From NCBI GenBank assembly GCA_963847625.1, contig CAWKAR010000033.1, positions 74,449-138,448 of the forward strand: 64,000 bases of DNA, in the 5' to 3' direction. The first letter of the stretch is position 1. Each line of letters opens with the position of its first letter. Origin of the DNA: a candidate division FCPU426 bacterium. GTDB lineage: Bacteria; Oederibacteriota; Muellerivitia; Muellerivitales; Muellerivitaceae. Shown piece by piece: positions 10,272 through 32,762 of this stretch. The notes under the pieces were generated by a model. That model searched no databases, was not told the DNA's origin, and worked only from the letters and a program-made list of their open reading frames with translations. The translations under genes and the position numbers were made by a program.

Positions 10272-10278
10272 TATCGCC

Positions 10279-10494
10279 TCAGTGGAAAAGTGGAAAAGCC
10301 AGGCAGCCGATTGTAATCAACCGCCAATCGGCGGCCAGGAAAGGCGCGCCTATTCCAATCAAGGCCACCCATAATTTAAAAACCAAGGATGCCGGAGCGC
10401 AGTTAAGGAAAAGGCCGGAAAGTGTCCAAATAACCACCAAGAAAATAGGTGAAAGCCTATCGCCGGGTGTAAGGATCTTCTTATTCAATTTCAA
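10279..10494 (-). CDS. small two-TM membrane protein (71 aa) immediately upstream of GT-C paralog 1
   Basis: TTG start preceded by GGAGG with a 7-nt spacer. Hydrophobic translation. Its stop lies 7 nt before the GT-C start, which has a GAGG RBS. Confidence 0.4.
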   Translation of the reverse strand: MKLNKKILTPGDRLSPIFLVVIWTLSGLFLNCAPASLVFKLWVALIGIGAPFLAADWRLITIGCLAFPLFH

Positions 10495-10606
10495 GGATTT
10501 ACCTCCAGTGCTTTTAGAACCGGGGTGGCAGGCAATAAACCGGTTTTAGTAGACAATAGGAATTCTTTTTGCCTGCCGCCAAACCGCTATCAAGAAAATT
10601 CTCAAT

Positions 10607-10969
10607 TTACCGGATACCCGTGGCTTTCAACCATTCGTTCAAATGCTTATCGATCCCATTCAACCGTTTCACCCATCGGTCATGCAGTTCTTGTGAAAGA
10701 AGCACCTTTTTCAGGCAGAGAGACATCAAGGGCACGCATTCGTGGGTGAGGGCGACCGCATCCTGGAGGAACTTTTGGGTACGCGCCGCACTTTTGGATT
10801 TCTGGGCATTGGAAACGGCCTGCGAAAGCGCGTGAACTTTGCGTTTCAATCTCTCGACAGCGGCGTTTTTCAAGGCCCAGGGCAAGTGCTGGTAGGTCTT
10901 GTTGAGCTCACTCGCCAGGTCGTCACACAAAGTGGCAAGGTTGATATTCAAAAAGTCGGATTCCGTCAC
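10607..10969 (-). CDS. hypothetical helical cytoplasmic protein (120 aa)
   Basis: ORF with codon usage like its neighbours. No recognisable motif. GTG start. Confidence 0.35.
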   Translation of the reverse strand: MTESDFLNINLATLCDDLASELNKTYQHLPWALKNAAVERLKRKVHALSQAVSNAQKSKSAARTQKFLQDAVALTHECVPLMSLCLKKVLLSQELHDRWVKRLNGIDKHLNEWLKATGIR

Positions 10970-11121
10970 CTAAAGATTATAGCCACTCGATTGCTTTTGG
11001 AATGGTGGAATTATTTTTAAACGTTGGCTACCACGTCATCCTCCCTAAAGCCATGATCAATGGTTCGCTTAGAAACTCAAAATTGATTCTTTTTTTGTGG
11101 GAAAGTTGGCAGGGGCCACCG

Positions 11122-13314
11122 TTATTGGACATGTATTTTTTTGAGTTGATTTTGTTCCAGACGATCCAGCTTTTCTAAAGTTTCCTTAGGCGGACGGAAA
11201 AATGGATCTAATCGTCCCGCTATTTCATAGGACCGCCGAGCTTCGTGGTATTTCCCCGATGCAAAAAAAAGGTTTCCTAAGAAATGGTAGTTTTCGGCAG
11301 AAGGATAACCTTTCTTTAAACCCCATTGAACAGCCGAAAGAATCCTTGATTCGGGTTGTCCGGCCGACATCAAGTTATCGACAACCACTTTCCAAAAATG
11401 GGACTCTAAAAAAAGATCGCTCTTAAAGAGTTTATGATTTTCAAAGAGCCGGTAGTTCATGTCTTCACGGAAATGCAAATTCACTGGATTTAAGCTTTCA
11501 TAAAACAAATCCTGGAGGAATAAATTGGCAATGGACCACCGCTGGAAAGTTTCAGTATTTTGATTTGTGAGGGATGTCACCATCATCCAATAACGATGAG
11601 GAGGAGCGTTTGGGTATAAAGAAGGTCCTAGCTCAAACCATTTTGATTTTGGAAACCTTTGACTTAGAAACAACACGTCAGGTGTTTCAACCAATACAGC
11701 CGCCCAACGTGCCTTTTCAAAGCCCAGGGAGGAATTTCTTTGAGCATCGAAAGGAAAGCAAGCCACCGTCAGGCTTTGCTCCTTCGGATCTTTTCCCAAG
11801 CAGGTTGTGAACTCATTCAAAACTAATCCAGGCTCGCGTGTAACTTGAATCTGCTTCAGTATTTGGTATGCGTCGTAACACTGCCGTTGTTTGGCGTATT
11901 GTTCCCATTTTTCCGGGTGGGATTTCCAAAAATTAGGATAGATCCAAGATAAATGAAAAAAATCTATTCCAAAGGAACAAAGACAGATCATTCCCAGAAA
12001 GTAGACGGTTTTTTCCCCTGGGAGTCTTATTAACAACACTTGAAAACCAAGCGCCACACAGAATAACAAGAGGGGTAATACTGGAAGAATTCGAAATATC
12101 TCAAAATTACTTGTCAAAAAACCGGGCAGAAGAAAAAGAAGGAAAGCACCCATGATCCAACGTACCCATGGATGACGCCGTTGTTGAACAAGTTCAATTA
12201 GTCCTAAAAAAAATAAGGTATCCATCAAAGGATTGAGAAAGCCTCCCCAAAGGGGCCTGTAACCGAACTCATGAATTTCTGGGTCTATTCCCCAAAAAAG
12301 GGCAGTTAAGTAGGAACCGGCGATTTGTAGGTAATGAATCAAGGAAATATTATTTTTAAAGACCCAAAGACTTTCGAGGTAAGTATTTGTTGGAAGATTT
12401 ACGTATTGGATAATCAAAGGAATCAGAAGTAAAAAAATCGGGAGAAATCCGATTAAAAAGAGAAATATCTGTTGGCCCGTTTTTTTAATTGAACGCAGGG
12501 AGCAAAGATAGGCTATGCCGATCATGAACGCGATGAGAGGCCAGTGGAGATTGATATAGAAACCAAGACCCAGGCCAAGACTCAGGCATAAACCCCTTCG
12601 AATTTTTAACTCAAAAGATCGCGCATGCAGGTAATGACCCAGAAGAAGCAGACAAAAACACTCCCAAAAGGGAATTAGAATGGGGGAAATATTAAATCGC
12701 CCAAGATAGAGGGGCCAGAAACAAAATGACCAAAATAACGCCATTAAAGTAGAGAAAGATTTCGAAAAAAAATGTCTGGAAGCCAAGTATCCCATAGTCA
12801 ATGTTCCCATTGAAATTAAAGCGGGAAAAAGCCAAAGCGAAAACAGGGAAGGAGGAATAATTTTGAAAAAAAGAGCTAATAACCAATAAAAACCTGGTGG
12901 CAAATGACTGATGCCGAAGAAAAGATTCCAATGCCATTGGTGATTCAATTGCGTGGCAAAAAAAGCAGAAGCACCTTCGTCGGTTGTGGGCCAGACCGGA
13001 AGGTCGGTAAGTTTGTAAAGCCGTACGGCCAAAGCCAGCCCGATCAGGGTGGTCCAGAACCAAAGGGGCAAGGCCGGTAAGGATTCATATGCCCAAGGAG
13101 GTTTATTCTTTGGCTCGGGAGCATGGCGGACCAGGATGGCGGCGGCCATAATGGGAAGGAAACCCAGCAGGAAAATCCAAAATTGTCCCGACAAAGGGAG
13201 GGGGGCATAAGACAATATGGCACTCAATAATCCAAGAGAAACAAAGTAGATCCATGGATTTTTAGGCAAGGCTTGAGTAAATTGGGCATGGTCGGATGAG
13301 AAATTCCAAGTCAA
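11122..13314 (-). CDS. GT-C-fold membrane glycosyltransferase with C-terminal TPR-like repeats, paralog 2
   Basis: Motif LYKLTDLPVWPTTDEG..LPPGFYWL. Multi-TM N-terminal domain. C-terminal region LGNLFFASGKYHEARRSYEIAGRLDP is TPR-like. Confidence 0.75.
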   Translation of the reverse strand: MTWNFSSDHAQFTQALPKNPWIYFVSLGLLSAILSYAPLPLSGQFWIFLLGFLPIMAAAILVRHAPEPKNKPPWAYESLPALPLWFWTTLIGLALAVRLYKLTDLPVWPTTDEGASAFFATQLNHQWHWNLFFGISHLPPGFYWLLALFFKIIPPSLFSLWLFPALISMGTLTMGYLASRHFFSKSFSTLMALFWSFCFWPLYLGRFNISPILIPFWECFCLLLLGHYLHARSFELKIRRGLCLSLGLGLGFYINLHWPLIAFMIGIAYLCSLRSIKKTGQQIFLFLIGFLPIFLLLIPLIIQYVNLPTNTYLESLWVFKNNISLIHYLQIAGSYLTALFWGIDPEIHEFGYRPLWGGFLNPLMDTLFFLGLIELVQQRRHPWVRWIMGAFLLFLLPGFLTSNFEIFRILPVLPLLLFCVALGFQVLLIRLPGEKTVYFLGMICLCSFGIDFFHLSWIYPNFWKSHPEKWEQYAKQRQCYDAYQILKQIQVTREPGLVLNEFTTCLGKDPKEQSLTVACFPFDAQRNSSLGFEKARWAAVLVETPDVLFLSQRFPKSKWFELGPSLYPNAPPHRYWMMVTSLTNQNTETFQRWSIANLFLQDLFYESLNPVNLHFREDMNYRLFENHKLFKSDLFLESHFWKVVVDNLMSAGQPESRILSAVQWGLKKGYPSAENYHFLGNLFFASGKYHEARRSYEIAGRLDPFFRPPKETLEKLDRLEQNQLKKIHVQ

Positions 13315-13566
13315 TTCATTTTCTCCCCACGGAAGAGGCTTTTCTCCAATAGGAAAATTCCAATCGAAGAAATTTTTTCGGCAAATTTTCCATATTTTTT
13401 AATCTTAACACACCTTTTCAAAGGGTCCAATTTGAATCCCAAACTTTTCATCCAGAAACCCTTTTGTGCCGGAACCAAGTTCCTTTTCCCGTCGTTTTTT
13501 TATCGCCTGACCAGTGTGGAAGATATAATTTAGAATCACTCTTGAAAATTCAGAAAGAAGTTCTCA

Positions 13567-15108
13567 TTGAATCGAGAAGAAAAAACCAAGGTCTTCGAGT
13601 ATATCGCTTTTACCATAATGGCGGTAATCATTTGCCTGGAGCGATGGCACACCTACCTGGAACCGCTCGAGCGGGACATTACGACTTACGCAGTCATTGG
13701 ACACGAACTGCTTTCAGGCAGAAAACTTTATTCGGATCTTTGGGATTGCAAACCTCCCGTCCTTTACTTTTCCTTTTCCATGGCGGAAGTCCTGGCCGGA
13801 TACGGTCCCTCCGAAATCTACCTGCTCAATATCCTAACGGGCCTTTTGACCCTGTGGGGCGTGTACCGGGCGGGCTGCCGGATCGGCGGAAGGGCAGGAG
13901 GCCTGTGGGCTTCCCTTTTTTGGTCGGTTCTTTCAGGTGACCTTTACCTTCAAGCCAACCAGCCGAATATCGAAGTTTTCCTTAACGCATGCCTCACTTG
14001 GGCTTTTGTCTTTTGGCTGGGAGTCGGCGAAAAAAAATTTGATGCGCGAAAGGGGGCGGCCGTCGGGTTTTTACTTGCTTTAGCCTCGCTTTATAAACAT
14101 GTTTTCATTTTCAGTGACATCCTGATGGGCCTGCTTTACCTGGGTTTACAATGGAAAAATCATCTTGCCAGGCGAGCCGCTTATTCCATGGTTCTTTGGA
14201 TTTTTGGGTTTTTATCCGCAACCTGGGTCCTCCTGGTGGGGTACTTCGCCCTGACCCAGCGGATAAAAGACTTCATAGGCGCTATCGTTATCTACAATTT
14301 TTTCAACAATCACTTCGGTGTTGGCCGGGTTTCCATTTTTCTAGAGTTCTTCCAACACAATCAAACCGGTATGGAATTCCCGATTTTTATCCTACCCCTT
14401 TTGTTGTTGAGCTTAGGAGGGATTTTATTCCGCGATGAAAAAAATATTCAACCTTGGCTTTTATGGTTGGTTTTTCTCATTTCCTCTGAAGCCGCCCTTT
14501 TTGCACCTGGTCTCTTCCTTCCCCATTATTACCAACTCCTGCTGCCATGGCTTGTGATCGGAGGAGGTTGGAGTTCGGCCCGATTGGGACAAGTCCTTTC
14601 TGGTCGATGGAAAAAAACTTCCCTTTTACCCGGAATTCTCGTGCTCCTTATCCTGATTTTCCATGAAGCGCCCTTTTACCAGTGGCCGGCGGTGACTTGG
14701 TCGGAAAAAAAATACGGGGACGTTTTTACACAAACGGTCGATTTGGCGAAAAGGGTCGATCAAATCCTAGAACCAGGTGAGACCTTTTATGAATGGGGGA
14801 ACGAAACGGGCCTTTATTTTCTGACAAAAAGGTCCCCTCCTTGTGGGCTTTTTTATGGTTTTCCGCTGATGATTTCCAACTTGACGGATACCTTAAGCCT
14901 CAAAACCATTGAGCAACTGGGAAAAAACAAACCCGAGCTTTTCATTTTTTACACAGGTTATCTGCCAGAAGGCTGGGGGCGGAATCCTCTAATGGTTTGG
15001 CTCCGGGAACATTACCGATTATTGCCTGGTGAAAAAAAAGGGGGGAAATTCCTTTTTCTGATGCGAAAAGGAGGGCGTTTGGAAAAAAGGCTTTCCGATA
15101 AGATCTGA
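13567..15108 (+). CDS. GT-C-like polytopic membrane protein (513 aa, no TPR); paralog of 33343..34929
   Basis: Shares the motif HTY.EP.ERDI...DLW.CKPPV near the N-terminus with the 528-aa protein. It has more than 10 TM segments. Confidence 0.6.
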   Translation: MNREEKTKVFEYIAFTIMAVIICLERWHTYLEPLERDITTYAVIGHELLSGRKLYSDLWDCKPPVLYFSFSMAEVLAGYGPSEIYLLNILTGLLTLWGVYRAGCRIGGRAGGLWASLFWSVLSGDLYLQANQPNIEVFLNACLTWAFVFWLGVGEKKFDARKGAAVGFLLALASLYKHVFIFSDILMGLLYLGLQWKNHLARRAAYSMVLWIFGFLSATWVLLVGYFALTQRIKDFIGAIVIYNFFNNHFGVGRVSIFLEFFQHNQTGMEFPIFILPLLLLSLGGILFRDEKNIQPWLLWLVFLISSEAALFAPGLFLPHYYQLLLPWLVIGGGWSSARLGQVLSGRWKKTSLLPGILVLLILIFHEAPFYQWPAVTWSEKKYGDVFTQTVDLAKRVDQILEPGETFYEWGNETGLYFLTKRSPPCGLFYGFPLMISNLTDTLSLKTIEQLGKNKPELFIFYTGYLPEGWGRNPLMVWLREHYRLLPGEKKGGKFLFLMRKGGRLEKRLSDKI

Positions 15109-15214
15109 GATCACAAGAGTCGCTGTTCCATTTAAAAGTCCCCATGGAATTCAAGCAATTTTCGAAGAAAAGAAGGCCAAGGATTAATCGAAAGGTTGGA
15201 AAGAATCCGGGATT

Positions 15215-17377
15215 TCATGGCAGAAACTTTCTGGAATCGGTTAGATCAAGAGGCGCTTTGATAGCCCGCTGGAAAGCGCGTTTGGCCCGGTGCTTGTTTC
15301 CTGCCATAAGCCAGTAAATTCCCTGCTGGTAATACAAGTGGGCGGCCGGATAACCATGTTTAGAGGCATATTCCAAAGCCGACAAACTTTCTTTTAGGGC
15401 AGATTCGTTTAAAAGGGCCTCCGGAACGGGTTGGTTGATGATTTCTGAACGCGCAGGGGTGTCGTCCACATGGAGCGCTTTTAAAAAATTCTGTTGGAAA
15501 CAAAGAAGCGATTCCATTTCACCATAGGCAGATTCCAGAAAGGGATCACCTTGAAGCCAAGGTGACGCCTGACACAAGCTTTTCCGAAGATCGTCATAAC
15601 CATGATGCGGGACAAGGTAATTAAATTGGTCCCAGAAGGGGTTTAAGGCCCGGTCCGCGGACTTCCAAAGATCCAGGGTTTCACGGAGGGCGGGGGTGAG
15701 AGGGGAGACCCATAACATCAAACCCCCGTCGGATGGGGGATGATTCTTGTTCAACCAATAAACCTTCCCCCCGGGGAACCTTTTTTCAAGGAAAGGCTGA
15801 TAATTCACGTTTGTTAAAAGTCCCACCCAAGGGGTTTCTCCCTTCCGGGCTTGTCCGTGAAGAAGGTTGAATGAATAGGTACCAAAATCGATGTAGGGCG
15901 TCCAGGGTTTGCGGACAAACCGGGTAAAGATATAACCGGGCCCTTTTTCGGATTGAAGACGTTCCAGAAGATGGTAAGTCTGAAACATTTCAGGTAGCCC
16001 TGTATCGCGATTGGCGGCATCCCGGCTTTTACTAAGGTTCACCATGTCCAGCCCAAAGGAAAGCAACAGAACCAACCCCAGGAGTCCTCTGTAAAAGGGG
16101 ATCCGGATTCTGGACAAAAGGGCGAAAAAACCCAGGACCACCGTTCCCATGAAAAAAGGGATGAGGGAAATGACGTGGAACCAGTTCGTATTGTTCGCCA
16201 GGAGGCATGGAATAAAAAGAACGGCAAAACCTAGACCCACCCACCGAACCAAAGCCTGACGCCGCCATTTCCAGAGGATCCCGGTTCCGATAAAGAAAAA
16301 AGCCCCCTCTATGGGATTCAAAAACCCGCCCCACTGGGAGTTATAAGCGAAATTAACTTTCCACCCTTCCCAGAAAAATGCCGTGAAATAATCCAGGTTC
16401 CGCCAGGGACTCCAAGGGATGATGTTTTCCGGATTAGGATGGGACCAGAAAATACTGGAGAGGTATCCTCCAAAATCCGCCTGCAAAGCGGCCAGGATCA
16501 GCGGTGCGACGGCTAGGACAGAACCCGCGAGAAACCAGGACATATTTAGGGAGCTTAAAATTCCTTTTCGAACGCCTGCCCACACCGTAAGGCCCATCAA
16601 TAGGGCAACCAAAGGCCAGCCGAAATAAGTATAAAATCCGGCGCCCACCCACAGGCCCAGAAGGAAGGGAAGGGTTTTTTGCGAGGAGGAGACACCTTTT
16701 GAAAACAATTTCGCCAGGATCCAAAAGCCGACCGATTCCCAAAAAAACATCAAAACCGCTTGGTGGGAAAATCGTCCTACAAAACAAGGCCAGAATTGAA
16801 TGCATAATAAAGCCAGGAAGGCGAAAGCGAAAGAACGGGATACTCTGGGCCGCAGGGCTTTATAGAAAAAAAATATTGAAACAGCCGAGAGAAAAGCCGG
16901 GAACCCCCAAAGGGAAACGAAGGAGACCCCGGCAACCTTGTAAACTCCCGCCAGAAGCCAGATATAAAATGGAGGCAATTGACTCCAATTGAAAAAGAAC
17001 TCCCACGTCCATTTTTCCTTAAGCCGGATCGCGCAGAGGGCGTTGTTGATTTCGTCGAGCAATGGATAGTCCAAAAAAGTCGTCAATCGATAGAACCTAG
17101 TCAGCCCTCCCAGCGCCAATACCAGAAACCAAACCCATGGGGACGGGGAGGAAAACAATTCCTTCCGGTAAGGGGGTTCTTCCAGGGGGGAAGCCTTCGG
17201 CATGGAGCTTATCCACAATCCCAGAGGCAGAAGCCAACCTAGAAAACCAATCCACAGCTTGGCTTGAAGAGGCAAGGGGACATAAGCCAATAGGCCGTTG
17301 ACCAAGGCGAAAAGCCAAAAGAAGGGCCAGGGATTTTGAAAGAGATTTTTCGACCGTGTTTTGTTATGGCTTTTCAT
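15215..17377 (-). CDS. GT-C-fold membrane glycosyltransferase with C-terminal TPR-like repeats, paralog 3 (last gene of a coupled trio)
   Basis: First-loop motif YPLLDE and C-terminal region AAHLYYQQGIYWLMAGNKHRAKRAFQRAI. The start overlaps the upstream paralog by 14 nt. Confidence 0.75.
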   Translation of the reverse strand: MKSHNKTRSKNLFQNPWPFFWLFALVNGLLAYVPLPLQAKLWIGFLGWLLPLGLWISSMPKASPLEEPPYRKELFSSPSPWVWFLVLALGGLTRFYRLTTFLDYPLLDEINNALCAIRLKEKWTWEFFFNWSQLPPFYIWLLAGVYKVAGVSFVSLWGFPAFLSAVSIFFFYKALRPRVSRSFAFAFLALLCIQFWPCFVGRFSHQAVLMFFWESVGFWILAKLFSKGVSSSQKTLPFLLGLWVGAGFYTYFGWPLVALLMGLTVWAGVRKGILSSLNMSWFLAGSVLAVAPLILAALQADFGGYLSSIFWSHPNPENIIPWSPWRNLDYFTAFFWEGWKVNFAYNSQWGGFLNPIEGAFFFIGTGILWKWRRQALVRWVGLGFAVLFIPCLLANNTNWFHVISLIPFFMGTVVLGFFALLSRIRIPFYRGLLGLVLLLSFGLDMVNLSKSRDAANRDTGLPEMFQTYHLLERLQSEKGPGYIFTRFVRKPWTPYIDFGTYSFNLLHGQARKGETPWVGLLTNVNYQPFLEKRFPGGKVYWLNKNHPPSDGGLMLWVSPLTPALRETLDLWKSADRALNPFWDQFNYLVPHHGYDDLRKSLCQASPWLQGDPFLESAYGEMESLLCFQQNFLKALHVDDTPARSEIINQPVPEALLNESALKESLSALEYASKHGYPAAHLYYQQGIYWLMAGNKHRAKRAFQRAIKAPLDLTDSRKFLP

Positions 17378-19547
17378 CGTGTTCTCCGGAAGGTGGAAGA
17401 AGTTTTTCGTATGTGGAAGCCTGTGTCAAATCCACTAAAGCTCCCCTCGCTTTTCGGAAGCATTCTTTTGCTTCCGGGATTTTCCCCTGAATCGAATAAA
17501 GGGTCCCCATTTTGAAAAAAAGATGGGCGGAGGGATAACCTTTTTGAATGGCTGTTTTTAGATAAAGAAGGGCGGCCTGATATGCTTCCGGCCCGGAGGA
17601 AGGATCACAACCGGTAATCATCTTTCGCGTAGAGAGATCGGCCATTTTCTCGAAATAATAAGTTTCCAAGAGAGGATCACTTTGGAATAAGGAATGGATT
17701 TTTCGAAGGGCCATTTCCATGGGTTCCAAGGATTGCCCCGGAACATATAAAAGGCTTTTTTCAATGAAAAGCTTCAGGGCCGCCGAAGCCTGGAACCAAC
17801 GGCGGAAGATTTTCGCCGGCAAGTCTTTACCGGGAATCACCCAAAGCATCCATCCACCCTCCGGGCTTCCTATATCCTTGGAAATCCACCAGGCTTGCCC
17901 GGTTGGAAAACTTTTTTTCAAAAAGGGAATGAGATTGGCGTTCGCCAAAAGCCCCACCCATGGGACAGGCCCGGAAGTAAGCCCCTGAGGGTTCGATAAA
18001 TTAATACGGAAATCCGCCACCGACAGGGTTTGATCCGAAAGTCCCGGCACGAAATCGCTAAATAGGTAGCCGGGCCCCTGGGTTTTGGACAACTTTTCCA
18101 ATCGAAGAAAGGCTTGATACCTGGTGTAGGATTTCCCATAGCCATTCCAATTATCCAGGGACTTCCAAACGGCGGGATAGGCGGCGAAAAGGTGAAAAAA
18201 ATCCAATCCCGCCGCGATCACCAGGATCAGGGATAAGATCAAAACATTCCGCCGTGGGCGGTCGGAAAGCAAACGCCCCAAACCCAAGACCACCAGCACC
18301 GCCAAGATGGGGAAAGCCAACACCATCCGGGAAGTCGCTCTTTCGGAGGTCAAGATACCCGGAAGCAGGAAAAACGGAAGGGAGGCTAACAACCATTGAT
18401 AAAACCGGTTCTTGAGCCGGGGTATGACTTCAATTAATCCCATGAAAAAAAGGGAACCCATCAGCGGATTCAAATAACCCCCAAAAACCGGCTGGTAGGT
18501 GTGGTATTTCAAGTCCATCCCCCAAAAAAGGGAAGTGATATAAGAAAGGGAGATGTTGATTTGTTCATTTGGATGGACAGCCGGGTTTCCGGCCGAGAGG
18601 TGGCGCAGATAAAAAACCATCTGATCCAGTCCTTCGCCGGAAATCCACAAGGCAAGAGGCAACAAGAGGCACGCGCAGGGAAGAAGGAAGGACAGGAGAA
18701 TTTTCACCCGGAGGAAGTTTTTTCCCATCCCTTTATTTGCGGCCCAGAAAATCAGGGTCGCTCCAACCGCCGCGGCCAGAACGGGCCAGTGTAAATAAGT
18801 ATAAAAACCCAAACCGGTCATGGCTCCCAGGGCCGCGGCCAAGCCGGGTTTCCGGGCGGGTTCGGTCCGTGTCAGGAACCGGGCCAACAACCCCAATGTC
18901 AGGCATTCAAAAAGGAGTACCAAGCCGGTCATGAGGGAAAAACGGCCGACATAAAGGGGCCAGAAACTGAAGCCGAAAATGAAAGCCAGGGCCACGGAAC
19001 AGGACCGGTTAAAGAAACCACGGGCCGCCCAATAGGAAACAGGAAACAACAAGGATGATATCAATGCCGGAAGAAACCAAAGACTGAAGAGGGAAACCCC
19101 GAACCATTTGAAGGTCCCGGCAAGGAGCCAAAGGTAAAGGGGAGGGGCTTGGCTGGATCCGTACAATATTTGCCAGTTCCACTGACGGGAAAGTTGGGAG
19201 GCGTAGTAACCATACATTCCTTCGTCATAAAGGGGCCAAACCGAAAGGGTGGTAAGCTTGTAAAACCGGGCGAAGAGAGCCAAGGCCGCCACGAACAGCC
19301 AAACCCAGATTGGAATCGCCGGCAGAAATTCCTTTTGGTAAAGGGGCACTTCTTTTGGGGAAGGATTAGGAAAGGCGCGGCAAGCCATCATCCAGGGAAT
19401 GAACAACCCGAGCAGGCAGATTCCCATCTTGATCCAAAACGGGAAAGGAAAATAGGAAAGAAAGGTATTTGAAATAAGGAAAATAAAAAAATAAACCCAC
19501 GGATTGGTGTTCGAAAAAATTTTGGGCGCGAATTTTATTTTTGCCAT
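17364..19547 (-). CDS. GT-C-fold membrane glycosyltransferase with C-terminal TPR-like repeats, paralog 4
   Basis: Motif FYKLTTLSVWPLYDEG. Overlaps the upstream paralog by 13 nt and the downstream one by 14 nt. TPR-like C-terminus. Confidence 0.8.
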   Translation of the reverse strand: MAKIKFAPKIFSNTNPWVYFFIFLISNTFLSYFPFPFWIKMGICLLGLFIPWMMACRAFPNPSPKEVPLYQKEFLPAIPIWVWLFVAALALFARFYKLTTLSVWPLYDEGMYGYYASQLSRQWNWQILYGSSQAPPLYLWLLAGTFKWFGVSLFSLWFLPALISSLLFPVSYWAARGFFNRSCSVALAFIFGFSFWPLYVGRFSLMTGLVLLFECLTLGLLARFLTRTEPARKPGLAAALGAMTGLGFYTYLHWPVLAAAVGATLIFWAANKGMGKNFLRVKILLSFLLPCACLLLPLALWISGEGLDQMVFYLRHLSAGNPAVHPNEQINISLSYITSLFWGMDLKYHTYQPVFGGYLNPLMGSLFFMGLIEVIPRLKNRFYQWLLASLPFFLLPGILTSERATSRMVLAFPILAVLVVLGLGRLLSDRPRRNVLILSLILVIAAGLDFFHLFAAYPAVWKSLDNWNGYGKSYTRYQAFLRLEKLSKTQGPGYLFSDFVPGLSDQTLSVADFRINLSNPQGLTSGPVPWVGLLANANLIPFLKKSFPTGQAWWISKDIGSPEGGWMLWVIPGKDLPAKIFRRWFQASAALKLFIEKSLLYVPGQSLEPMEMALRKIHSLFQSDPLLETYYFEKMADLSTRKMITGCDPSSGPEAYQAALLYLKTAIQKGYPSAHLFFKMGTLYSIQGKIPEAKECFRKARGALVDLTQASTYEKLLPPSGEHDEKP

Positions 19548-21631
19548 AATTCCCGCAAGAGTTGGTCCGCATTGGTGAAATTCATGGGGGCATGACTCGC
19601 TTGTTGAAAAGCTTCCCGGGCTTCAACCCTATTCCGGTCAATGTATAAAAGAGTACCCAAAGTATAGTATAGGTGCGTCGCCGGATAACCGCTTTTCAAG
19701 GCTTGCCGAATGTCCTGGATGGATTCCCGGTGGTCCTGGAACCCCATCTTCAAATCATTGTCCGCGGCCTTTTCCCAAAAACAAGATTCCAGGAAGGGGT
19801 CTCCCCGGAAATAAGGATAGGCTTGTAAAAGCGAATCCCGGACCGGTTGAAAAGACTGGCCATGGACATAGGAAAGGAATTGGTGGATGAAGGGTTTTAA
19901 AGCCTCTGCGGCTTTTTCCCAACGCGCCATTACTTCCTGGCGATTGGGTGTCACAGGCATTACCCAAAGCATCGTCCCACCGTTGGGCTCAGGAGCTTCC
20001 TTGTCGAGGAAATAGGCCTTCCCGTCCGGAAATCGCTTGGCCAGGAAGGGACGGTAATGAACGTTCACGAGGACCGCAGCCCATTTAAACTTTTCCCCTA
20101 AAAGTTCCGGATTCCACACCTGATTGTAGGCATAAGTGGAAAGAGTGAGGGTCTGGTCGCAAAACCCGGGAGAAAAATCCGTGAAAATCAATCCTTGGCC
20201 TTCGTTACGGGCTTTTTGTTTCAGGATTTCATCCGCCTTAAATCGTATAAAAGATTTCGTGTTCCAATAGGACGGGGTTTCCCATGTTTTCCGGTAGGGC
20301 CCCGCTAAGTGGTAAAAATCCAATGCAAAAGAAGCCAAAAAGATTCCGGAAACTACAAAAAACGGTTTCATCACCGGTGAAAAAGACAAGAACCTGGATA
20401 AACCAAGGGCTGCGGCCGCCAGTATGAGTGGCATGAGGGGCAAAAGGCGAAAAGGCTCGAGGGTTTTGGTGAGTAGCGCCGGAACCAGGAACATGACCAG
20501 GCCGATTCCCAGACATCGATAGAGGGGCAGGGTGCGGTTTTTAAACATTTCAAGGCAAGCCAGGAAAAATGCGGACCCGAGGATAGGATTGAGGAACCCA
20601 CCCCAGGCGGGGTAGTAGGGATGGATATGGTCCTGAAATCCCCAGAAAGGCACCGCAAGATAGTCCAAGGATGTCTCCAACTGGTTATGGATGGGAGAGC
20701 TTTTCGAAAAGGCCCAAAGGTCGTTTAAATACCAGCCATATCCTTGGCGGATGGCGGCCAGAACCAGGGGGAAAAATAAGAAGATAGCGGCCATGGAAAA
20801 AATGAAAAAATGGGAAAAACCGGATTTCCTTTTCAGGGAAACGGCCAAAACAACGAGGCCAATGAATCCCGCGATGGGGGGCCAGGAAATATGGATGTAG
20901 AACCCGGCCCCGACGATCATGCCTAAAAACAGACTCCCTGTTTTTTGATCCTTCAGGGGGGCGTTTAAATATTTACCCAAAAAATAAAAGGCCAGGCATT
21001 CCCAAAATGGGATCAACACCGTCATCAACGAATACCGCCCTGCGTAAAAAGGCCAGAAACTACCCGCCAAAAAAAGAAGCAAGAGGAATGAGAACGACTT
21101 GGAAAAATATTGACGGAAGGCGAAATAACCCACGGGGACGGTCAATAACGAGACTAAAGCGGGGAAAAACCAAAGGGTGCCCAACGAGACGCCAAAAATT
21201 TTGAAAAAAAGTCCCAGCCCCCAAGCATACGCCGGAGGGGATTGACTGCTGAAGTAGAACAAGCGCCAGTCCCATTTCCGGGAAAGTTCCAAGGCGGAAT
21301 AATTGATGGAGCCTTCGTCGTAAAGCGGCCAGACCGAAAGAGTGGTGAGTTTGTAAAACCGCACGCAGATGGCCAAAGCCGCCACCGATAACCAAATCCA
21401 GGTTGGAATCGCCGGCAAAAATTCCTTTTGGTAAAGGGGGACTTCTTTTGGGGATGGGGCGGGAAAGAAGTGCCAGGCCATTACCCAGGGGAATACCAAC
21501 CCCAGCAGGCCGATTCCCAGCTTCATCCAAAACGGAAGGGGAAAATAGGCAATAAAGGCGTTAGAAAGGAAGAAAATAAATAAATATGGCCATGGGTTGG
21601 AGGGATAAAAATATCGAAACATGATTTTCAT
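19535..21631 (-). CDS. GT-C-fold membrane glycosyltransferase with C-terminal TPR-like repeats, paralog 5 (first of the coupled trio)
   Basis: Motif FYKLTTLSVWPLYDEG. The stretch SPKEVPLYQKEFLPAIP is identical to paralog 4. TPR-like C-terminus. Confidence 0.8.
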   Translation of the reverse strand: MKIMFRYFYPSNPWPYLFIFFLSNAFIAYFPLPFWMKLGIGLLGLVFPWVMAWHFFPAPSPKEVPLYQKEFLPAIPTWIWLSVAALAICVRFYKLTTLSVWPLYDEGSINYSALELSRKWDWRLFYFSSQSPPAYAWGLGLFFKIFGVSLGTLWFFPALVSLLTVPVGYFAFRQYFSKSFSFLLLLFLAGSFWPFYAGRYSLMTVLIPFWECLAFYFLGKYLNAPLKDQKTGSLFLGMIVGAGFYIHISWPPIAGFIGLVVLAVSLKRKSGFSHFFIFSMAAIFLFFPLVLAAIRQGYGWYLNDLWAFSKSSPIHNQLETSLDYLAVPFWGFQDHIHPYYPAWGGFLNPILGSAFFLACLEMFKNRTLPLYRCLGIGLVMFLVPALLTKTLEPFRLLPLMPLILAAAALGLSRFLSFSPVMKPFFVVSGIFLASFALDFYHLAGPYRKTWETPSYWNTKSFIRFKADEILKQKARNEGQGLIFTDFSPGFCDQTLTLSTYAYNQVWNPELLGEKFKWAAVLVNVHYRPFLAKRFPDGKAYFLDKEAPEPNGGTMLWVMPVTPNRQEVMARWEKAAEALKPFIHQFLSYVHGQSFQPVRDSLLQAYPYFRGDPFLESCFWEKAADNDLKMGFQDHRESIQDIRQALKSGYPATHLYYTLGTLLYIDRNRVEAREAFQQASHAPMNFTNADQLLRELWQK

Positions 21632-21867
21632 TTTGGCAATTTTACCTCGAATTTCCCAGATGAAATTTCTCTTTGAATATAATAAAGCATCGGTTGGCCG
21701 CGTAAACTAGGGTTTTTGCTCGTTTTTGGGATCATAAGAGGAGGAAATGAGATAGGGAAGAAAGTAAAAGAAAAAATAATTTCGATTGGCGGAGGAATAG
21801 AAAAATCATAAATCATACCTGGACCCATTTATTGTGTTAGGCCTGGCTGTCTCTTTAGTACTATTAC

Positions 21868-24077
21868 TTGATAAAAACAATCAGGGAGAATATCCTGCCA
21901 AAACAAAAAATCTTTTTATTTTTCATGTTTTTCCTGTCCGGGTTTAGCGGGCTCACTTATCAAACCATTTGGATTAGGCTGGCCTATGCCCACTTCGGCA
22001 TCACCACCCATGTATTGTCTGTGGTCCTCTCGGTTTTCATGATGGGACTGGCGCTAGGAAGTTGGGCGGGTGGTAGATGGGCTGCCCCACTGACTCGATG
22101 GTCCGGAAGGTCCGTCCTCTTTTTTTACGCCGCCATCGAGGGGCTTACCGGCCTGGGAGGCCGGATGGTTCCCCATTTTTTTTCTTGGGGCCGTCAATCA
22201 CTTTTATCTTTGGGTGACGCCGATTCGGCAAGCTACCTTTTTTTTCGGGCCTTGTCATTCTTGTTTCCCTCCTTCCCTGGTGCTTCGCCATGGGCACCAC
22301 TTTTCCTCTGGGGATGCAATTCATCCGGGAGAAAAGAGCGGCCGAAAAGGAAAGTTTTAGTTTCCTCTACTTGGCCAATGTTTTAGGGGCTTGCACCGGA
22401 ACCTTAGCCACCGCCTATATTCTGGTGGAATGGCTTGGCTTTAATGACACCCTTAAAACAGCATCCGTGGTCAATTTTACAGTCGGGGCGGGAGCCTTAA
22501 TTTGGGCCCTCGTCCTTCCTACTCCTCCCCGGCGCTTACCCCAAAGCGGAAACAGCCAGGCACTCCCAAAAAACTCCATCCGTGCCTGGTATCCGGCTTT
22601 GTTGTTCTCAACAGGCTTCACCTCCATGGCGATGGAAGTGGCTTGGGTGCGTGATTACACTCCCATCCTAGGCAACGAGGTTTATGCTTTCTCGGGCCTG
22701 CTGGCGGTTTATCTTTTCGCCACCTGGATGGGCTCTTGGCTTTACCGACGGCAGACGGTCTTCCAAAAAGTCGTTTCCATTGAAACCCTTTTGGCACTCT
22801 TGTCCTCCTTTGCTTTCCTCCCTGTGGCGCTCAATGATCCGCGCTGGCACCATACCCCGTGGGTGGCGCTTTTAAGCCTGGTCCCCTTTTGCGGCACGCT
22901 GGGTTACTTGACTCCTTGTTTGATTGACCGCTTGTCCAAGGGCGATGCCCGGATCGCGGGCAGGGGATACGCTTTTAATATCCTAGGCTGTATTTTGGGC
23001 CCCCTTTTAGCGTCCTATTTGCTACTTCCTTTCCTTGGATCCCGGTGGTCCCTCGTCGTATTGGCCCTTCCTTTTCTCTTTTTCTACTTAGTTTTGGCAG
23101 GTAAATTCAGTGGGGTTTCATTCCGTCCCTCCCTGCTTTTTCCGGCCTTTGGCCTTTTTATTTTTTCGGGTTTTTTTTGCGGCAGCTATGAGGAAGGGAC
23201 CGACTTGTCAGGGATGAAACAGATGGTTTTAAGACGGGATGCCACAGCAACCGTCATTTCCTACCAGGGTTCCTCGCAAAAGGCCCTATTAGTCAACGGC
23301 ATCGGGATGACCGCCATGACGCCCATCCCGAAAATCATGGCCCATTTACCCATGCTTTTCTGTCCTCATTCCCCCCGATCGGCCCTAGTCATTTGCTTTG
23401 GCATGGGGACAACCTTCCGGTCGATTGCTAGTTGGGGTGTGGATACCACCGCAGTAGAGCTTGTGCCGAGCGTCAGGGACGCTTTTGGTTATTATTTCAC
23501 TGACGCGCAAGCCATTCTAAACAACCCCAAGAACCGCGTGGTTATTGATGACGGGCGGAGGTTTCTTTCCAGGACGCGTCGGAAATTCGACGTGATTACC
23601 CTGGATCCTCCCCCGCCCCCGGAAGCCGCGGGTTCCAGCCTTCTTTATACTGGGGAGTTTTACGCCGCGCTGAAAAACCATCTTCAAGAGGGTGGAGTGG
23701 TACAGCAATGGATCAACTGGGGTAATGCCAAAAGCATGCAAGCCTTCATACGTTCCTTCACCCGTTCTTTCCCCTATGTCAGGGCCTTTGTTTCCTTGCA
23801 CGGGGGGGGCCTTCATATGATTGGTTCTCTACAGCCCCTCACTTTCCCGCCGATTTTGAAGGCGCTTTCCCTTATGCCTGCTTTGGCCCGGAAAGATTTT
23901 GTAGAATGGAATCTAACCAACAAAGACCCAGCCTGGTTCTTAAACCTCATCTTGTCATCGGAAGCGGACTTGAACTCAATGCTCAATCCGGATGAACAAA
24001 TAACCGTCACCGACGACCGGCCCTTTAATGAGTATTATTTGCTTCGCCGGGCGTTCCCAACCGTTTTTCGGTATTAG
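21868..24077 (+). pseudogene. spermidine-synthase-like (polyamine aminopropyltransferase fold) protein fused to an N-terminal polytopic membrane domain; reading frame broken at a T8 tract (22238..22245)
   Basis: ORF 21868..22386 (TM-rich N-terminus, TTG start) and ORF 22290..24077 (C-terminus with the aminopropyltransferase-like region LVICFGMGTT...ITLDPPPP) lie in different frames. Shifting +/-1 at the T8 run gives one continuous protein (..SASYLFFSGLVILVSLLPWCFAMGTTFPLG..). This could be a real frameshift or a homopolymer sequencing error. Confidence 0.55.
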
Positions 24078-24177
24078 AGTCTAATAAAACTTCAAATTTG
24101 CCACAACAGTGCTTCAAACCGCACAGTTTAGAAATTTGAAATGGAAAAGTTTTTAGATTCGAGAAACACACCAGTCA

Positions 24178-26283
24178 TTACCCGGGGGTCTTCCTTAAAT
24201 TTTCCAAAGCGTTTGTGTGGTTCAGGGGGGAACGGAGCGCGGACTCAAAGGCCTGACGGGCTTTGGCGTAATCCCCCTGGGTAAACCAAAATACCCCCAA
24301 GTCATTGAATAAATGAGCGGCGGGGTAACCCATGGTAAGGGCCTGACGCAGAGCTTCAAGGCCAAGGGCAGGTTTTGAATCCACCATTGCATTGAAAAAT
24401 ATTTTTTCCGCAAGGCAGGATTTTAAAAAAGGGTCTGAATTAGCCAGGGTCTGCAATCTGGCCATGGAATCCAAAATATGCTGATGCGACTTGCCGAAAC
24501 CGAGATTTACTGTCTCCCAAACCAATGGTCGCATGGCCCGTTCGAATTCCATCCAATGGCCCAATATCGCCCGGATTTCGGGATGGTTCATGTCCAATAT
24601 CCCCAAGATCAAGATTTCTTGGGACCGGTAGTTTTCAGGGATTGTTTGAAACCATTGTATCTCAGGAAATCGCCTTGCCAGGAAGGGCGCGTAATTGATG
24701 TTAGTTAAGAAACCGATCCACGTTGAATTTGTCGGAGATAACCTTGGATTCCACGCCGCATTAAAAGGATAGGTGGCTAAGGTGAGTGTTTGGTTAAAAG
24801 AGGATGATTCAAACGATGTAAAAATGAGGCCCGGACCTTTATTTTGTGCTTTTTCCCGAAGGATATCATATGCCTTCATCCGTTCGTAAGACCTGGTATC
24901 GGCATTAAAGGTTAAGTAATCCGAATGACAAGATTGTTGATAAGGGCCGAGCAGGTGGTAAAAATCCAAACCCGTCGAAATTGCGAGAATGCCCAAAATT
25001 GCGCCAAGACGAACCGAAGGAGAAAGCTTTAAAGCTAAAACTGACATGCCCATCATAATAACTGCCAGCAACAAAGGAATGATTAATACTAGCCGGAAAA
25101 ATTCAAGTTCCATGGTTAACCAACCCGGCAAAATAAAAAGAACTAACCCAAAACCTAATAAAAGACCCATGGCCGTATTACGGAATCGATACAACTCCAC
25201 CAAGCCCAAGAAGAAAAAACTATCCAATAATGGATTTAAATAACCTCCCCAAAAAGGTTTATAACCGTGCCTATTGGTTTCTACACCCCAAAAAATACTG
25301 CAGAAATAGTTCCAACAAATTTTCGTCTGAGATTGCCAATCATGATGAGCTTGAAAGGCCCAAAGCATGGAAAAATAAGTTCCAAGTCTTTGATAAAAGG
25401 CGGCTACTAAAAACGGGGTGGCGGAAAGAATCAATGGAATGAGAAACCAAAAGAGGGTGGAAAATTTAAAGGATGAGCCCCTTAAAGCCATTGCCACTGT
25501 CAAAAATATCAATAACACCATGAAAGGCCATGATAGGTAGGCATAAAATCCCACGCCCGTCAGCACTCCAAGTAACGCTGCTTTTTTATTTTGACCATAA
25601 CCGCTGAGACTTTTTAAAAAACCTCCCAAACTGATAAAAACCAATAGTTCCCAAAACACGAGGAACAGCGGAGGGACACTATAACGACCCAAATAAAAAG
25701 GCCAAAAACTAAGAGCGAATAAAGAACCACCGATCCAGGCAAAGGAACGGTTGAAAAAAAGCTTGCATGCCCAAAAATACAAGAGAATTAAAAGGAATGA
25801 CAGGCAGGCAGGGAAAAGCCAGAGGGAAGTCAAGGAAGGACCCAATATTTTAAAAAATAAACCAAGAGACCAGGGAAATAGCGGCGGACTTTGAAAAGGG
25901 AGGTAAAAAAGACTCCACTTTCTTTCTTCAGAAAGTTCCAAGGCGGCAAAACCGAAATATCCCTCGTCGATAAGGGGCCAACCTGAGAGATTGGTGAGCT
26001 TGTAAAACCGGATGAAAATGGCAAGAAGCCCAATAACAACCATCACTCCAATTGGAAAAGTCGGCAGGAATTCCACGGGCACCATCGATTCCCCTCTCGC
26101 TGCTGGTGGGCAACTCGATAATGCCAAGACCAACGGCAAGAGAAGACATGTCACGGCAATCCATAATTGGGAGGTGACGGAAAGATGGAAATAGGATAGA
26201 AGAAAATTCCCGATTAAAATAAATGGAATATAAAACCAGGGATTGTAAGGAATATCGAATTTATTTATTTTGGATAAATCCAT
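24178..26283 (-). CDS. GT-C-fold membrane glycosyltransferase with C-terminal TPR-like repeats, paralog 6
   Basis: Motif FYKLTNLSGWPLIDEG and C-terminal PAAHLFNDLGVFWFTQGDYAKARQAFESAL. I chose the start at 26283 (MDLSKINKFDIPYNPW) because it matches the N-termini of the other paralogs. The ORF extends 34 codons further upstream, to 26385. Confidence 0.7.
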   Translation of the reverse strand: MDLSKINKFDIPYNPWFYIPFILIGNFLLSYFHLSVTSQLWIAVTCLLLPLVLALSSCPPAARGESMVPVEFLPTFPIGVMVVIGLLAIFIRFYKLTNLSGWPLIDEGYFGFAALELSEERKWSLFYLPFQSPPLFPWSLGLFFKILGPSLTSLWLFPACLSFLLILLYFWACKLFFNRSFAWIGGSLFALSFWPFYLGRYSVPPLFLVFWELLVFISLGGFLKSLSGYGQNKKAALLGVLTGVGFYAYLSWPFMVLLIFLTVAMALRGSSFKFSTLFWFLIPLILSATPFLVAAFYQRLGTYFSMLWAFQAHHDWQSQTKICWNYFCSIFWGVETNRHGYKPFWGGYLNPLLDSFFFLGLVELYRFRNTAMGLLLGFGLVLFILPGWLTMELEFFRLVLIIPLLLAVIMMGMSVLALKLSPSVRLGAILGILAISTGLDFYHLLGPYQQSCHSDYLTFNADTRSYERMKAYDILREKAQNKGPGLIFTSFESSSFNQTLTLATYPFNAAWNPRLSPTNSTWIGFLTNINYAPFLARRFPEIQWFQTIPENYRSQEILILGILDMNHPEIRAILGHWMEFERAMRPLVWETVNLGFGKSHQHILDSMARLQTLANSDPFLKSCLAEKIFFNAMVDSKPALGLEALRQALTMGYPAAHLFNDLGVFWFTQGDYAKARQAFESALRSPLNHTNALENLRKTPG

Positions 26284-26419
26284 GGTTCTATTTGCTTTCT
26301 TTGAAAAGTATTTTAATTTTTTCAGCGGGCCTTGTGGCCCGAAGAACAGGCATCTGGGACAAATTGCATCCGTGGTATTTGCCAAAGTTACCTAAGAGTT
26401 TCAGCTTTTTCATTTTCCT

Positions 26420-28576: not shown

Positions 28577-28586
28577 TAGTCCTATT

Positions 28587-29921
28587 TTATGTTTTTTTGC
28601 CAAGGACTTCTTGAGCTTTCTCCGCAGCCTTGTGGCCCGAAAGGCAGGCGCCCTCGATGGTGGCCGGGAGTCCGGTATCGGTAAAGTCGCCGGCCAGGAA
28701 GATATGGGGGAAAGGCGTCTCACAAGGAGGTCTCAGGGAGTCCGTTTCCCGTGACCAGCGGAAGGTCGCCGACATTTCACGAGTGACTTTAGAATGAAGC
28801 ACCTGGGCTTTCCGGGCTAATGGACAACGAACCTTTAATTCTTCCGCCGCCAAGTCCACCAGTTCCTTATCCGTCATTCGGGAGAGTTTTTCGGCGGCGC
28901 TGGCCGTGAAGCTGAGGTACTGGCCCTCCCCCCTCCAATTCCAGTTGGCGTTGCGGTTGAAAACCCACTCGAATTGGGCGCCTGACAGCCCCACCAGGGA
29001 CTCGCAGGTGACTTCCAGGGAGAGGATCAAGTGAACCGACAGGATGGGGGATTTGCCCAGTTTTGGCAGGGTTTCCAAGGCGGGCCAGCTTCCTTTCGGC
29101 CAAACGGCGTGAAGGGAAGCGGGGGAAACGGCCAGGACCAGGGCATCGCCGGAATAAGTTTTTCCAGATCGGCCGGTGAGAGTGAAATCATTTCCATGAA
29201 CTTGAATTGTTTGGATTCTCTCATGAAAATGAACCATCCCCCCTTTTTCTTCAAGGTAAGGAGCCACCTGGGGAAAGGCTAATTCGCTCAAGGGTTTGAT
29301 GGCGAGCCCAAAGGCGCTGTCAAAGCGGGAACCGAAGAAAACATGGTGAAGCACCTCTCCCAGGCCCCTCAGGGGGGCGATATCCGTCCCTATGTTCATC
29401 ACCGCGTTGGAAAGAGGAACCCAGAACCTTTTCCGGGCGGCGGGACCTTGGCCCGAGGCGTCTAAAAATTGGGAGACAGTCTCCAAGCCAGGATTGATCT
29501 TGAAGGGTTTTTTTGAAAAAACCAAGAGAGCCCTGGCCAGGCTTATTTTTTCCCCGAAGGGAAAGGCGTTGGAAGTCAGAAGGCCATAGGCCAAGTGGAA
29601 AGGCGCGGGAAAGCGAGCGCATTGAAGCGATACTTTTCCCCCGGGTGTGAGCCAGGAAAGACGCAGGGGATCGATCCATCGGAAAGAATTTTCCACCCCC
29701 AAGCGTCTTAACAGCGCCAATGTTTCCCGGTAACAACCCATGAAAAGATGCGGGCCATTGTCGCAGGCATAGGGAAAAGCCTTGGTGGGGGCGGTGGAAT
29801 AGACTCGGCCGCCCAAAAACCCGCGGGATTCCAGAAGGTCCACCGAATGGCCCTTTTGCGCCAAGGCAGTGGCGGCCGCCACTCCGGCAAAACCACCCCC
29901 GACCACCAGGACCTTCGGCAT
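28587..29921 (-). CDS. hpnE: hydroxysqualene dehydroxylase (squalene-associated FAD-dependent desaturase, amine-oxidase fold)
   Basis: N-terminal FAD dinucleotide-binding motif VLVVGGGFAGVAAA. It is 444 aa and lies directly downstream of an hpnD-like gene. Confidence 0.75.
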   Translation of the reverse strand: MPKVLVVGGGFAGVAAATALAQKGHSVDLLESRGFLGGRVYSTAPTKAFPYACDNGPHLFMGCYRETLALLRRLGVENSFRWIDPLRLSWLTPGGKVSLQCARFPAPFHLAYGLLTSNAFPFGEKISLARALLVFSKKPFKINPGLETVSQFLDASGQGPAARKRFWVPLSNAVMNIGTDIAPLRGLGEVLHHVFFGSRFDSAFGLAIKPLSELAFPQVAPYLEEKGGMVHFHERIQTIQVHGNDFTLTGRSGKTYSGDALVLAVSPASLHAVWPKGSWPALETLPKLGKSPILSVHLILSLEVTCESLVGLSGAQFEWVFNRNANWNWRGEGQYLSFTASAAEKLSRMTDKELVDLAAEELKVRCPLARKAQVLHSKVTREMSATFRWSRETDSLRPPCETPFPHIFLAGDFTDTGLPATIEGACLSGHKAAEKAQEVLGKKT

Positions 29922-29960
29922 GAAAACCTCCTAAGATCACCCGGCCATTTACCGGATGGA

Positions 29961-30830: not shown

Positions 30831-30906
30831 AATTAAAGAAAGTAAATTCCTTTTGTTTTAATAAGTTAATTTAAACTTTTTCCAGAAAGTCATTGGACTG
30901 TGTAGT

Positions 30907-32604: not shown

Positions 32605-32762
32605 ATTTGGATTATATTTGAACGGCAACCGACAGGTATCCTCAACTTGTCTTTTTTTAAAAAAAGTAAAGGGTGTATATTCCGGTTTTTTCGATTCATT
32701 ACCTCTTATATCCACCATGCATCTGGCTCTTGGATGGGTATATATCGATTCACCCTGGGCCT

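Follow-up and report, generated by a model that had tools for sequence, protein, structure and literature searches.

Probable gene conversion between adjacent genes in an ancient array of GT-C-like paralogs from a candidate division FCPU426 bacterium

The C-B-A operon

We analysed a stretch of 64,000 nt, hereafter the window, from contig CAWKAR010000033.1 (positions 74,449 to 138,448; assembly GCA_963847625.1) of an uncultured bacterium from soil or peat that belongs to candidate division FCPU426. Our subject is a group of three consecutive minus-strand genes, C, B and A, that form an operon with overlapping stop and start codons and whose products are putative membrane glycosyltransferases of the GT-C type. 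The explanation that we favour, with a probability of roughly 0.78, is that the C-B-A operon is part of an ancient array of seven GT-C paralogs and that the 5′ ends of B and C, over ca. 300 bp, have been exchanged by gene conversion. The features involved, in window coordinates, are the following.

Gene C: 19535..21631, minus strand, 698 aa, GT-C-fold glycosyltransferase heading the C-B-A operon (from its open reading frame [ORF], Pfam and AlphaFold2 [AF2])
Gene B: 17364..19547, minus strand, 727 aa, paralog of C
Gene A: 15215..17377, minus strand, 720 aa, paralog
Overlap of the C stop and the B start: 19535..19547, minus strand, 13 nt, ATGGCAAAAATAA; the stop codon of C is TAA
Overlap of the B stop and the A start: 17364..17377, minus strand, 14 nt, ATGAAAAGCCATAA, with GGAG just before it; the stop codon of B is TAA
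Putative conversion tract, B copy: 19219..19518, minus strand, about codons 11–110
Putative conversion tract, C copy: 21312..21611, minus strand, about codons 8–107
48-nt core of the tract: 19299..19346 versus 21392..21439, minus strand, 45/48 identical
Codons for D105-E106-G107 of C: 21311..21319, minus strand, at the 3′ border of the tract; the corresponding positions in B are 19218..19226

An earlier reading of the window from its letters alone (the sequence-only reading) had described three genes overlapping by 13 to 14 nt each, and we find them as described, on the minus strand and with overlaps of 13 and 14 nt. Such overlaps are common between neighbouring genes of the family in related genomes, where they measure 4 nt, a frequent value, or 13–14 nt, and the 14-nt overlap between B and A is kept in the related contig L016. 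A scan for promoters and terminators gave signal at or near the shuffle expectation. The same reading counted three paralogs, a number that has to be raised: seven full-length ones lie in the interval from 8.1 to 28.7 kb, and another four genes are GT-C-like but more distant. The seven, designated D, E, A, B, C, F and G, are ca. 700 aa long and share 25–41 % identity in BLASTP comparisons. B and C are mutual best matches within the window, with 41 % identity overall and ca. 35 % outside the tract, while A is 31–35 % identical to both and is not involved in any conversion tract.

The public annotation of gene C (database entry P0001) begins at Met36 and predicts a protein of 663 aa. The 698-aa start nonetheless appears preferable, because residues W14 and Y29 are invariant in all seven paralogs, residues 12–35 are conserved among them, and the nucleotide sequence of L016 is conserved up to the upstream ATG.

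A tract of high identity shared by B and C

The B/C tract was recovered by an independent repeat search as a gapless direct repeat of 300 nt, 79 % identical, with a spacing of 2093 nt. In a codon alignment of the paralogs, the nucleotide identity of B and C is 75–78 % over about codons 14–110 and 48–49 % elsewhere. The sequence-only reading, which held the remainder of these genes to be far more diverged, is therefore right on this point, and its proposed check for uniform identity along the alignment gave a strongly non-uniform result, with the excess at synonymous sites confined to ca. 100 N-terminal codons. The 48-nt stretch of 94 % identity that it singled out corresponds to the core (45/48) of the larger 300-nt repeat, and the best 48-nt window is 19310..19357 (46/48). 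As a candidate for a younger, nested tract, the core is only marginally above the rest of the tract (p ∼ 0.03).

The excess of identity extends to third codon positions and synonymous sites, where an enrichment of matches is seen in this tract only. We used a two-breakpoint max-chi2 permutation scan, run both on third codon positions and on codons for identical amino acids. Third positions match in 81 of 121 cases within the tract, compared with 0.40 overall, a value reached by 0 of 2000 permutations (p ≤ 0.0005); for identical amino acids, the same codon is used in 38 of 50 cases (p ∼ 0.002). Likewise, identical residues are specified by the same codon in 45/67 cases inside the tract versus 78/198 in the remainder (Fisher p = 7e-5). 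Of the 20 other paralog pairs that the window offers, none stays significant after correction in the max-chi2 scan, and none presents an excess of synonymous identity in the same columns.

At the amino acid level, the tracts of B and C are each other's nearest sequence, with 72 % identity. Two long identical peptides had been reported, and both, of 17 residues, are present in the two proteins: SPKEVPLYQKEFLPAIP at positions 60–76 of C and 63–79 of B, and RFYKLTTLSVWPLYDEG at positions 91–107 of C and 94–110 of B. The latter is in the most conserved segment of the family, so protein-level constraint could explain its identity; it cannot explain that of SPKEVPLYQKEFLPAIP, which is in a loop that varies across the family. 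A purely protein-level constraint as the origin of the tract is ruled out, because synonymous sites are affected and because loop 56–76 varies across the family. The tract encodes the two predicted N-terminal transmembrane helices, a cytoplasmic loop, helix TM1 and, as far as the sequence YDEG, the beginning of the first periplasmic loop. Both of its edges coincide with conserved motifs, the 5′ edge with NPW, near codon 14, and the 3′ edge exactly with the end of YDEG in WPxYDEG.

Phylogeny of the tract and of the gene bodies

Related loci were found with a profile from a 6-sequence alignment. All of them come from metagenome-assembled genomes (MAGs), either of candidate division FCPU426 or with uninformative titles, and comparable arrays occur in these relatives within the same genomic setting (hpnCDE ... 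addA). We built neighbour-joining (NJ) trees, with 500 bootstrap replicates, separately for the gene body and for the tract. In the body tree, B groups with its L016 ortholog (100 %), C groups with L017_4777 and L003_9968 (100 %), and B and C group together in 0 % of replicates. In the tract tree, B, C and the L016 gene form a group with 94 % support, and C joins its own orthologs L017_4777 and L003_9968 in 0 %. The identities of the bodies agree with this pattern: that of C is 53 % identical to P0002, 50 % to L003_9968 and ca. 35 % to B, and that of B is 69 % identical to P0021. On these trees, the bodies of B and C are members of different old orthogroups, with 100 % bootstrap support, that are shared with other FCPU426 genomes.

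Since the body and tract trees disagree, the B/C duplication is ancient and the tract is a later exchange. Of the two events put forward in the sequence-only reading, local gene conversion is hence sustained by this incongruence, whereas a recent duplication is not, the bodies falling in separate orthogroups. The two copies of the tract differ at 21 % of positions, close to the divergence of the window from L016, the nearest relative found, whose orthologs are 73–77 % identical; the exchange is therefore not recent in absolute terms.

A C::B fusion in a related contig

The gene order in L016 is hpnE - F - spmS-like - one gene - A, without the body of C. The single gene has upstream the spmS-C intergenic region and begins with the first codons of C (MKIMFRY...); its codons 3–36 are C-type, codons 47–90 are a mixed zone, and the sequence is B-type after about codon 85. 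In a blastn comparison, positions 5778..6106 of L016 align to both the C and the B tracts of the window. This gene therefore has the appearance of a fusion of the C promoter and first codons to the body of B, such as an unequal crossover inside the tract would leave.

Other differences affect the remaining genes. L016 is without G and E and contains a different paralog at the position of D, and the short PMT_2 gene M is inverted (10170..11714 in L016 and 13567..15108 in the window); in all, several rearrangements separate both sequences at ca. 75 % nucleotide identity. In L018, only orthologs of F and B are found at the array locus. The order F-C-B is common to the window, L003 and L017. The fusion in L016, the gene losses, the inversion of M and the reduced content of L018 indicate that the array is dynamic.

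Predicted fold and family of the paralogs

The product of gene C was modeled with AF2 from a 59-sequence alignment (pLDDT 92.4, pTM 0.91), giving about 13 long hydrophobic helices. In a Foldseek search with this model, all 25 PDB matches at E ≤ 1e-3 were GT-C enzymes, among them ArnT, ALG9, STT3, Pmt4, PglB, AglB, ALG12 and AftA, the top match being ArnT (5F15/5EZM; E 1e-8, structural TM 0.45/0.56); EmbC is also one of the best matches. Together with about two TPR units at residues ∼625–700, these matches bear out the GT-C/TPR identity that had been proposed from the sequence. The Pfam model PMT_2 (PF13231; cut-off 26.1 bits) is matched above its cut-off by C (33.6) and E (26.5), and no family-specific model (DUF2723, TMTC) matched the paralogs in the Pfam scan. 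A search of PDB sequences with the full profile retrieved only TPR proteins, which match the C-terminal ca. 80 residues.

From the model, residues 13–55 of C would form two extra N-terminal transmembrane helices, followed by a cytoplasmic loop (56–76) and a GT-C core of 11 transmembrane helices, with residues 450–698 as a probable periplasmic alpha/beta plus TPR-like domain. A D-[E/D] pair (D105-E106 in C) occurs in all seven paralogs ten residues after the putative TM1, and D105 is at least 90 % conserved in 59 homologs. Helices 77–92 and 104–118 of the C model, assigned by DSSP, are the basis for placing this pair in the first periplasmic loop, where it is presumed to be the catalytic site.

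A HMMER search of 1.84 billion proteins yielded 501 representatives of 50 %-identity clusters at E ≤ 1e-30, nearly all of ca. 700 aa. We found no description of this GT-C/TPR family or of the array in the literature.

Recurrence of the tract and alternative explanations

To place the B/C tract among other members of the family, we recorded the best 30-codon identity for 126 within-locus paralog pairs (median 0.64, 95th percentile 0.73). Four pairs are outliers for local identity, all of them within codons ∼10–107.

L008_16665 and L008_18809: best 30-codon identity 0.94
L004_5697 and L004_9992: best 30-codon identity 0.87
B and C of the window: best 30-codon identity 0.87
L004_5697 and L004_7646: best 30-codon identity 0.82

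The L008 genes (16665..18845 and 18809..20971) are a G-like tandem pair, 68 % identical overall, in which 45 of 50 third positions match in codons 10–59 (p ∼ 0.0025), a second, independent case of N-terminal homogenisation.

Two readings of this recurrence can be considered. We prefer the neutral one, that at conserved motifs the nucleotide sequences stay similar enough for recombination to begin and to stop there. To the other, a modular concerted evolution driven by selection, in which the N-terminal module, made of the two extra helices, the cytoplasmic loop and TM1 with the catalytic loop, is repeatedly homogenised between co-translated neighbours of independent genomes, in the window (B and C), in L004 (three genes) and in L008 (a pair), we give a small, although appreciable, chance. 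Were it true, neighbouring proteins would have to share their N-terminal module, either for the assembly of heteromers or for a common cytoplasmic or donor-loading partner, the periplasmic acceptor-binding domains would diverge freely, and the enzyme family in which this takes place would be one not described before.

Applied to B and C, selection could keep the N-terminal module alike in a hetero-oligomeric GT-C complex, of the Pmt1-Pmt2 or EmbA-EmbB type, or for interaction with the same cytoplasmic partner, so that conversion would be favoured. The overlapping stop and start codons of adjacent genes, here and in relatives, fit this idea, as do the high-identity N-terminal tracts between neighbours in three loci and the nature of the tract as a discrete unit made of the two extra helices, the cytoplasmic loop and TM1; moreover, dimers are among the Foldseek matches (Pmt1-Pmt2 6P25 and the Pmt4 homodimer 9I5K). 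However, A overlaps B in the same manner and has no tract in common with B or C, and the acidic pair is present in all seven paralogs, so none of them has the look of a partner without catalysis. That the set of paralogs differs between relatives, such as L018 and L016, also speaks against a complex of fixed stoichiometry, and the location of the tract is explained equally well by neutral conversion that starts at conserved motifs. We thus consider a selected module unlikely.

Instead of shared ancestry, the tract could reflect constraint on the nucleotide sequence itself, from a structured RNA, a DNA element or a regulatory site close to the 5′ ends of both coding regions. In its favour, synonymous positions are conserved in the tract, and one cross-genome pair of orthologs also has raised N-terminal nucleotide identity. 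Against it, the other 20 pairs of the window have no synonymous excess in the same columns; the C tract does not group with its own orthologs; an Rfam scan found no family in the C-B-A region; and the switch from C-type to B-type across the tract in the L016 gene is what a crossover predicts. This makes nucleotide-level constraint very improbable.

The contig, of 143,779 bp by the database entries for P0001, P0024 and P0055, comes from a MAG, and the 5′ ends of B and C could have been mis-joined or chimerised during metagenome assembly. Nevertheless, the copies are only 79 % identical and their longest exact match is 21 nt, too little for repeat collapse or graph shortcuts at the usual k; besides, neither reading frame is interrupted, full-length orthologs exist for each of the bodies, and L016 independently supports the adjacency of spmS and the C 5′ end as well as the B-A junction. 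An assembly artefact is, in our judgement, highly implausible. Lastly, a recent tandem duplication of B and C followed by fast divergence except at the N-terminus, an idea suggested by their being mutual best matches in the window, is refuted by the phylogeny of the bodies, which are nearer to genes of other genomes than to each other and fall in fully supported clades. The F-C-B order shared with L003 and L017 also speaks against it, and we give it practically no credit.

Several points weigh against our explanation. The tract covers the most conserved segment of the protein, with TM1 and the catalytic loop, which somewhat inflates its identity, and the orthologs L004_5697 and L014_1776, from different genomes, are also more similar at the N-terminus (0.76) than in the body (0.54). 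The trees are based on NJ, not maximum likelihood, of 97 amino acid columns, and the tract is about equally similar to the B-type and the C-type N-termini of other genomes (0.50–0.55), values too alike to read off a direction of conversion. A residual chance of assembly error attaches both to the window contig and to L016, which is a single Logan contig (run ERR11523656). As for function, PMT_2 scores are below the cut-off for B (23.0), G (19.7), D (17.2) and A (16.9), and F has no match; no NCBIfam model matches any of the GT-C paralogs; and the transmembrane module alone matched no solved GT-C sequence even at E ≤ 10. The topology, with the C-terminal domain on the periplasmic side, was worked out from the helices assigned by DSSP and from the positive-inside rule rather than with a specialised prediction program, and the biochemical function proposed below is deduced entirely from the fold.

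The array and its surroundings

The other members of the array and the associated GT-C-like genes are listed here along their coordinates, with two neighbouring genes.

Paralog D: 8151..10271, minus strand, 706 aa
Paralog E: 11122..13314, minus strand, 730 aa
Gene M: 13567..15108, plus strand, short PMT_2 protein of 513 aa, convergent with A
Membrane-fused spermidine-synthase-like gene: 22290..24077, plus strand, 595 aa, divergent from C, splitting the array
Paralog F: 24178..26385, minus strand, ORF of 735 aa, real start probably downstream
Paralog G: 26420..28723, minus strand, ORF of 767 aa, real start probably downstream
PMT_2-like gene: 30907..32718, 603 aa
Gene K: 33343..34929, PMT_2-like, paralog of M (36 % identical, both of ca. 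520 aa)
Fusion of an NAD-dependent sugar epimerase/dehydratase to an ArnC/PgfS-like GT2: 41154..43391, plus strand, start probably near 41470
Distant PMT_2 plus PA14 protein: 50800..52992

For G, a downstream start is probable because the start of the ORF overlaps the hpnE-like gene. Altogether, eleven GT-C/PMT_2-like genes are present in about 45 kb (8151..34929 plus 50800..52992). The array is flanked on one side by addB-like and addA-like genes (1676..8148) and on the other by hpnE-like and SQS_PSY squalene genes (28.6–36 kb), and GT-C genes are interleaved with the hpnC/D/E-like genes for squalene synthesis (28587..29921, 29961..30830 and 35082..35954). The C-B-A group itself is bounded by the divergent spermidine-synthase-like gene and by the convergent gene M. 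The product of the former matches the NCBIfam subfamily model ‘fused MFS/spermidine synthase’ with 59.6 bits (cut-off 40); the same arrangement occurs in L016, with two gene calls in place of one.

The GT2 domain encoded by 41154..43391 matches the PgfS model with 1e-55, although below the cut-off of this model, and ArnC with 5e-41. Split transketolase-like genes (39749..41436) precede this gene, and genes for a DUF4915 protein, a GT2 and a sulfotransferase are found downstream; these genes and those in 39749..43391 look like a block for the synthesis of a donor sugar.

Between E and D there is an ORF of 120 aa (10607..10969, minus strand) with a weak match to the 23S rRNA-intervening-sequence protein; it is kept in L016 (11845..12184) at 73 % nucleotide identity, and a gene of ca. 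119 aa follows the B ortholog of L018. A single tRNA gene (39385..39458, plus strand) is the sole Rfam match in the window. Farther away, an ORF of 1745 aa (57566..62803, plus strand) encodes a protein with CelD_N, GH9 cellulase and, at its C-terminus, FlgD-Ig-like domains, and is situated in a stretch of strongly negative GC skew (-0.44 at 60–62 kb).

Comparison with known glycosyltransferase systems

The predicted fold of C is closest to that of ArnT (GT83; 5F15/5EZM), with Pmt4 and Pmt1-Pmt2 of the PMT/POMT group (GT39) also matched; both groups use sugars linked to a lipid phosphate. The paralogs resemble these enzymes in the weak PMT_2 match, the acidic pair that follows TM1 in the first extracytoplasmic loop and the soluble domain after the last transmembrane helix. 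They differ in that they are only 11–17 % identical in structural alignments, with no match at the sequence level to a solved GT-C enzyme, and in that they would possess two extra N-terminal transmembrane helices and, instead of a MIR domain, C-terminal TPR-like helices.

In predicted architecture, and in that only, the paralogs are like the O-mannosyltransferases TMTC1-4 (GT105) and TMEM260, which have a GT-C module of ca. 11 transmembrane helices (∼410–450 residues) with an Asp in the first loop, followed by a luminal or extracytoplasmic domain of ∼250–300 residues, partly TPR, in a total of ca. 700 aa. For TMEM260, with this ca. 700-aa GT-C plus TPR architecture, the TPR domain has been proposed to select protein substrates (PMC10214176).

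The mycobacterial embCAB operon, for the arabinosyltransferases EmbC, EmbA and EmbB, is likewise made up of GT-C paralogs in tandem, whose C-terminal domain is periplasmic, as predicted for C, and both EmbC and EmbB are among the fold matches. EmbA and EmbB work as a heterodimer. Nevertheless, Emb proteins are ca. 1,000–1,100 aa long, have carbohydrate-binding modules rather than TPRs and give structural TM values of 0.19–0.34, and the array of the window is larger (7–11 genes) and varies in membership between genomes.

The Streptococcus Pgf system, which glycosylates proteins, comprises the GT2 PgfS, the epimerase PgfE and the GT-C proteins PgfM1 and PgfM2. The window has a parallel in its epimerase/dehydratase-GT2 fusion and its many GT-C proteins, which would cover donor activation, lipid loading and transfer by GT-C enzymes; in contrast, the fusion gene is ca. 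20 kb from C-B-A, and a functional link between them is at present a deduction.

With regard to mechanism, the locus shares with those tandem gene families of bacteria that undergo gene conversion and unequal crossover a short tract of raised identity, synonymous sites included, incongruent tract and body trees, and a deletion/fusion product in a relative. We found nothing mechanistically unusual in the B/C tract, which is old.

Discussion

Our explanation can be laid out as follows. The seven paralogs of this FCPU426 bacterium would be anciently duplicated membrane glycosyltransferases similar to ArnT and PMT. Each enzyme would take a sugar from a polyprenyl-phosphate carrier and transfer it to a periplasmic or surface acceptor, chosen by its own diverged C-terminal domain, and the polyprenyl-phosphate sugar donor is possibly made by the ArnC/PgfS-like GT2 fusion at 41–43 kb. 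The B/C tract would have arisen when the two neighbouring genes underwent gene conversion, a form of non-allelic homologous recombination, with the NPW and WPxYDEG motifs as plausible sources of the homology for initiating and terminating the exchange. In L016, the same tract would have been the crossover zone of a deletion that fused the promoter and first codons of C to the body of B. As a whole, the array is probably shaped by conversion, unequal crossover, gene loss and inversion.

The mechanism is textbook, ordinary recombination, and no new biochemical principle is shown; what the locus contains is an expansion, specific to this lineage, of GT-C/TPR enzymes that are still uncharacterised. 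Together, the tract shared by B and C and the C::B fusion are a clean natural example of how such an array is remodelled, through conversion, unequal crossover, loss and inversion. In annotation, the paralogs should not be taken for recent copies or collapsed. The family is a compact one of GT-C glycosyltransferases that no curated model describes, and in FCPU426, an uncultured phylum, it is massively expanded beside genes of squalene synthesis, the window having 11 GT-C-like genes in 45 kb. This expansion points to an elaborate and variable capacity for glycosylation of the envelope or of proteins in these bacteria.

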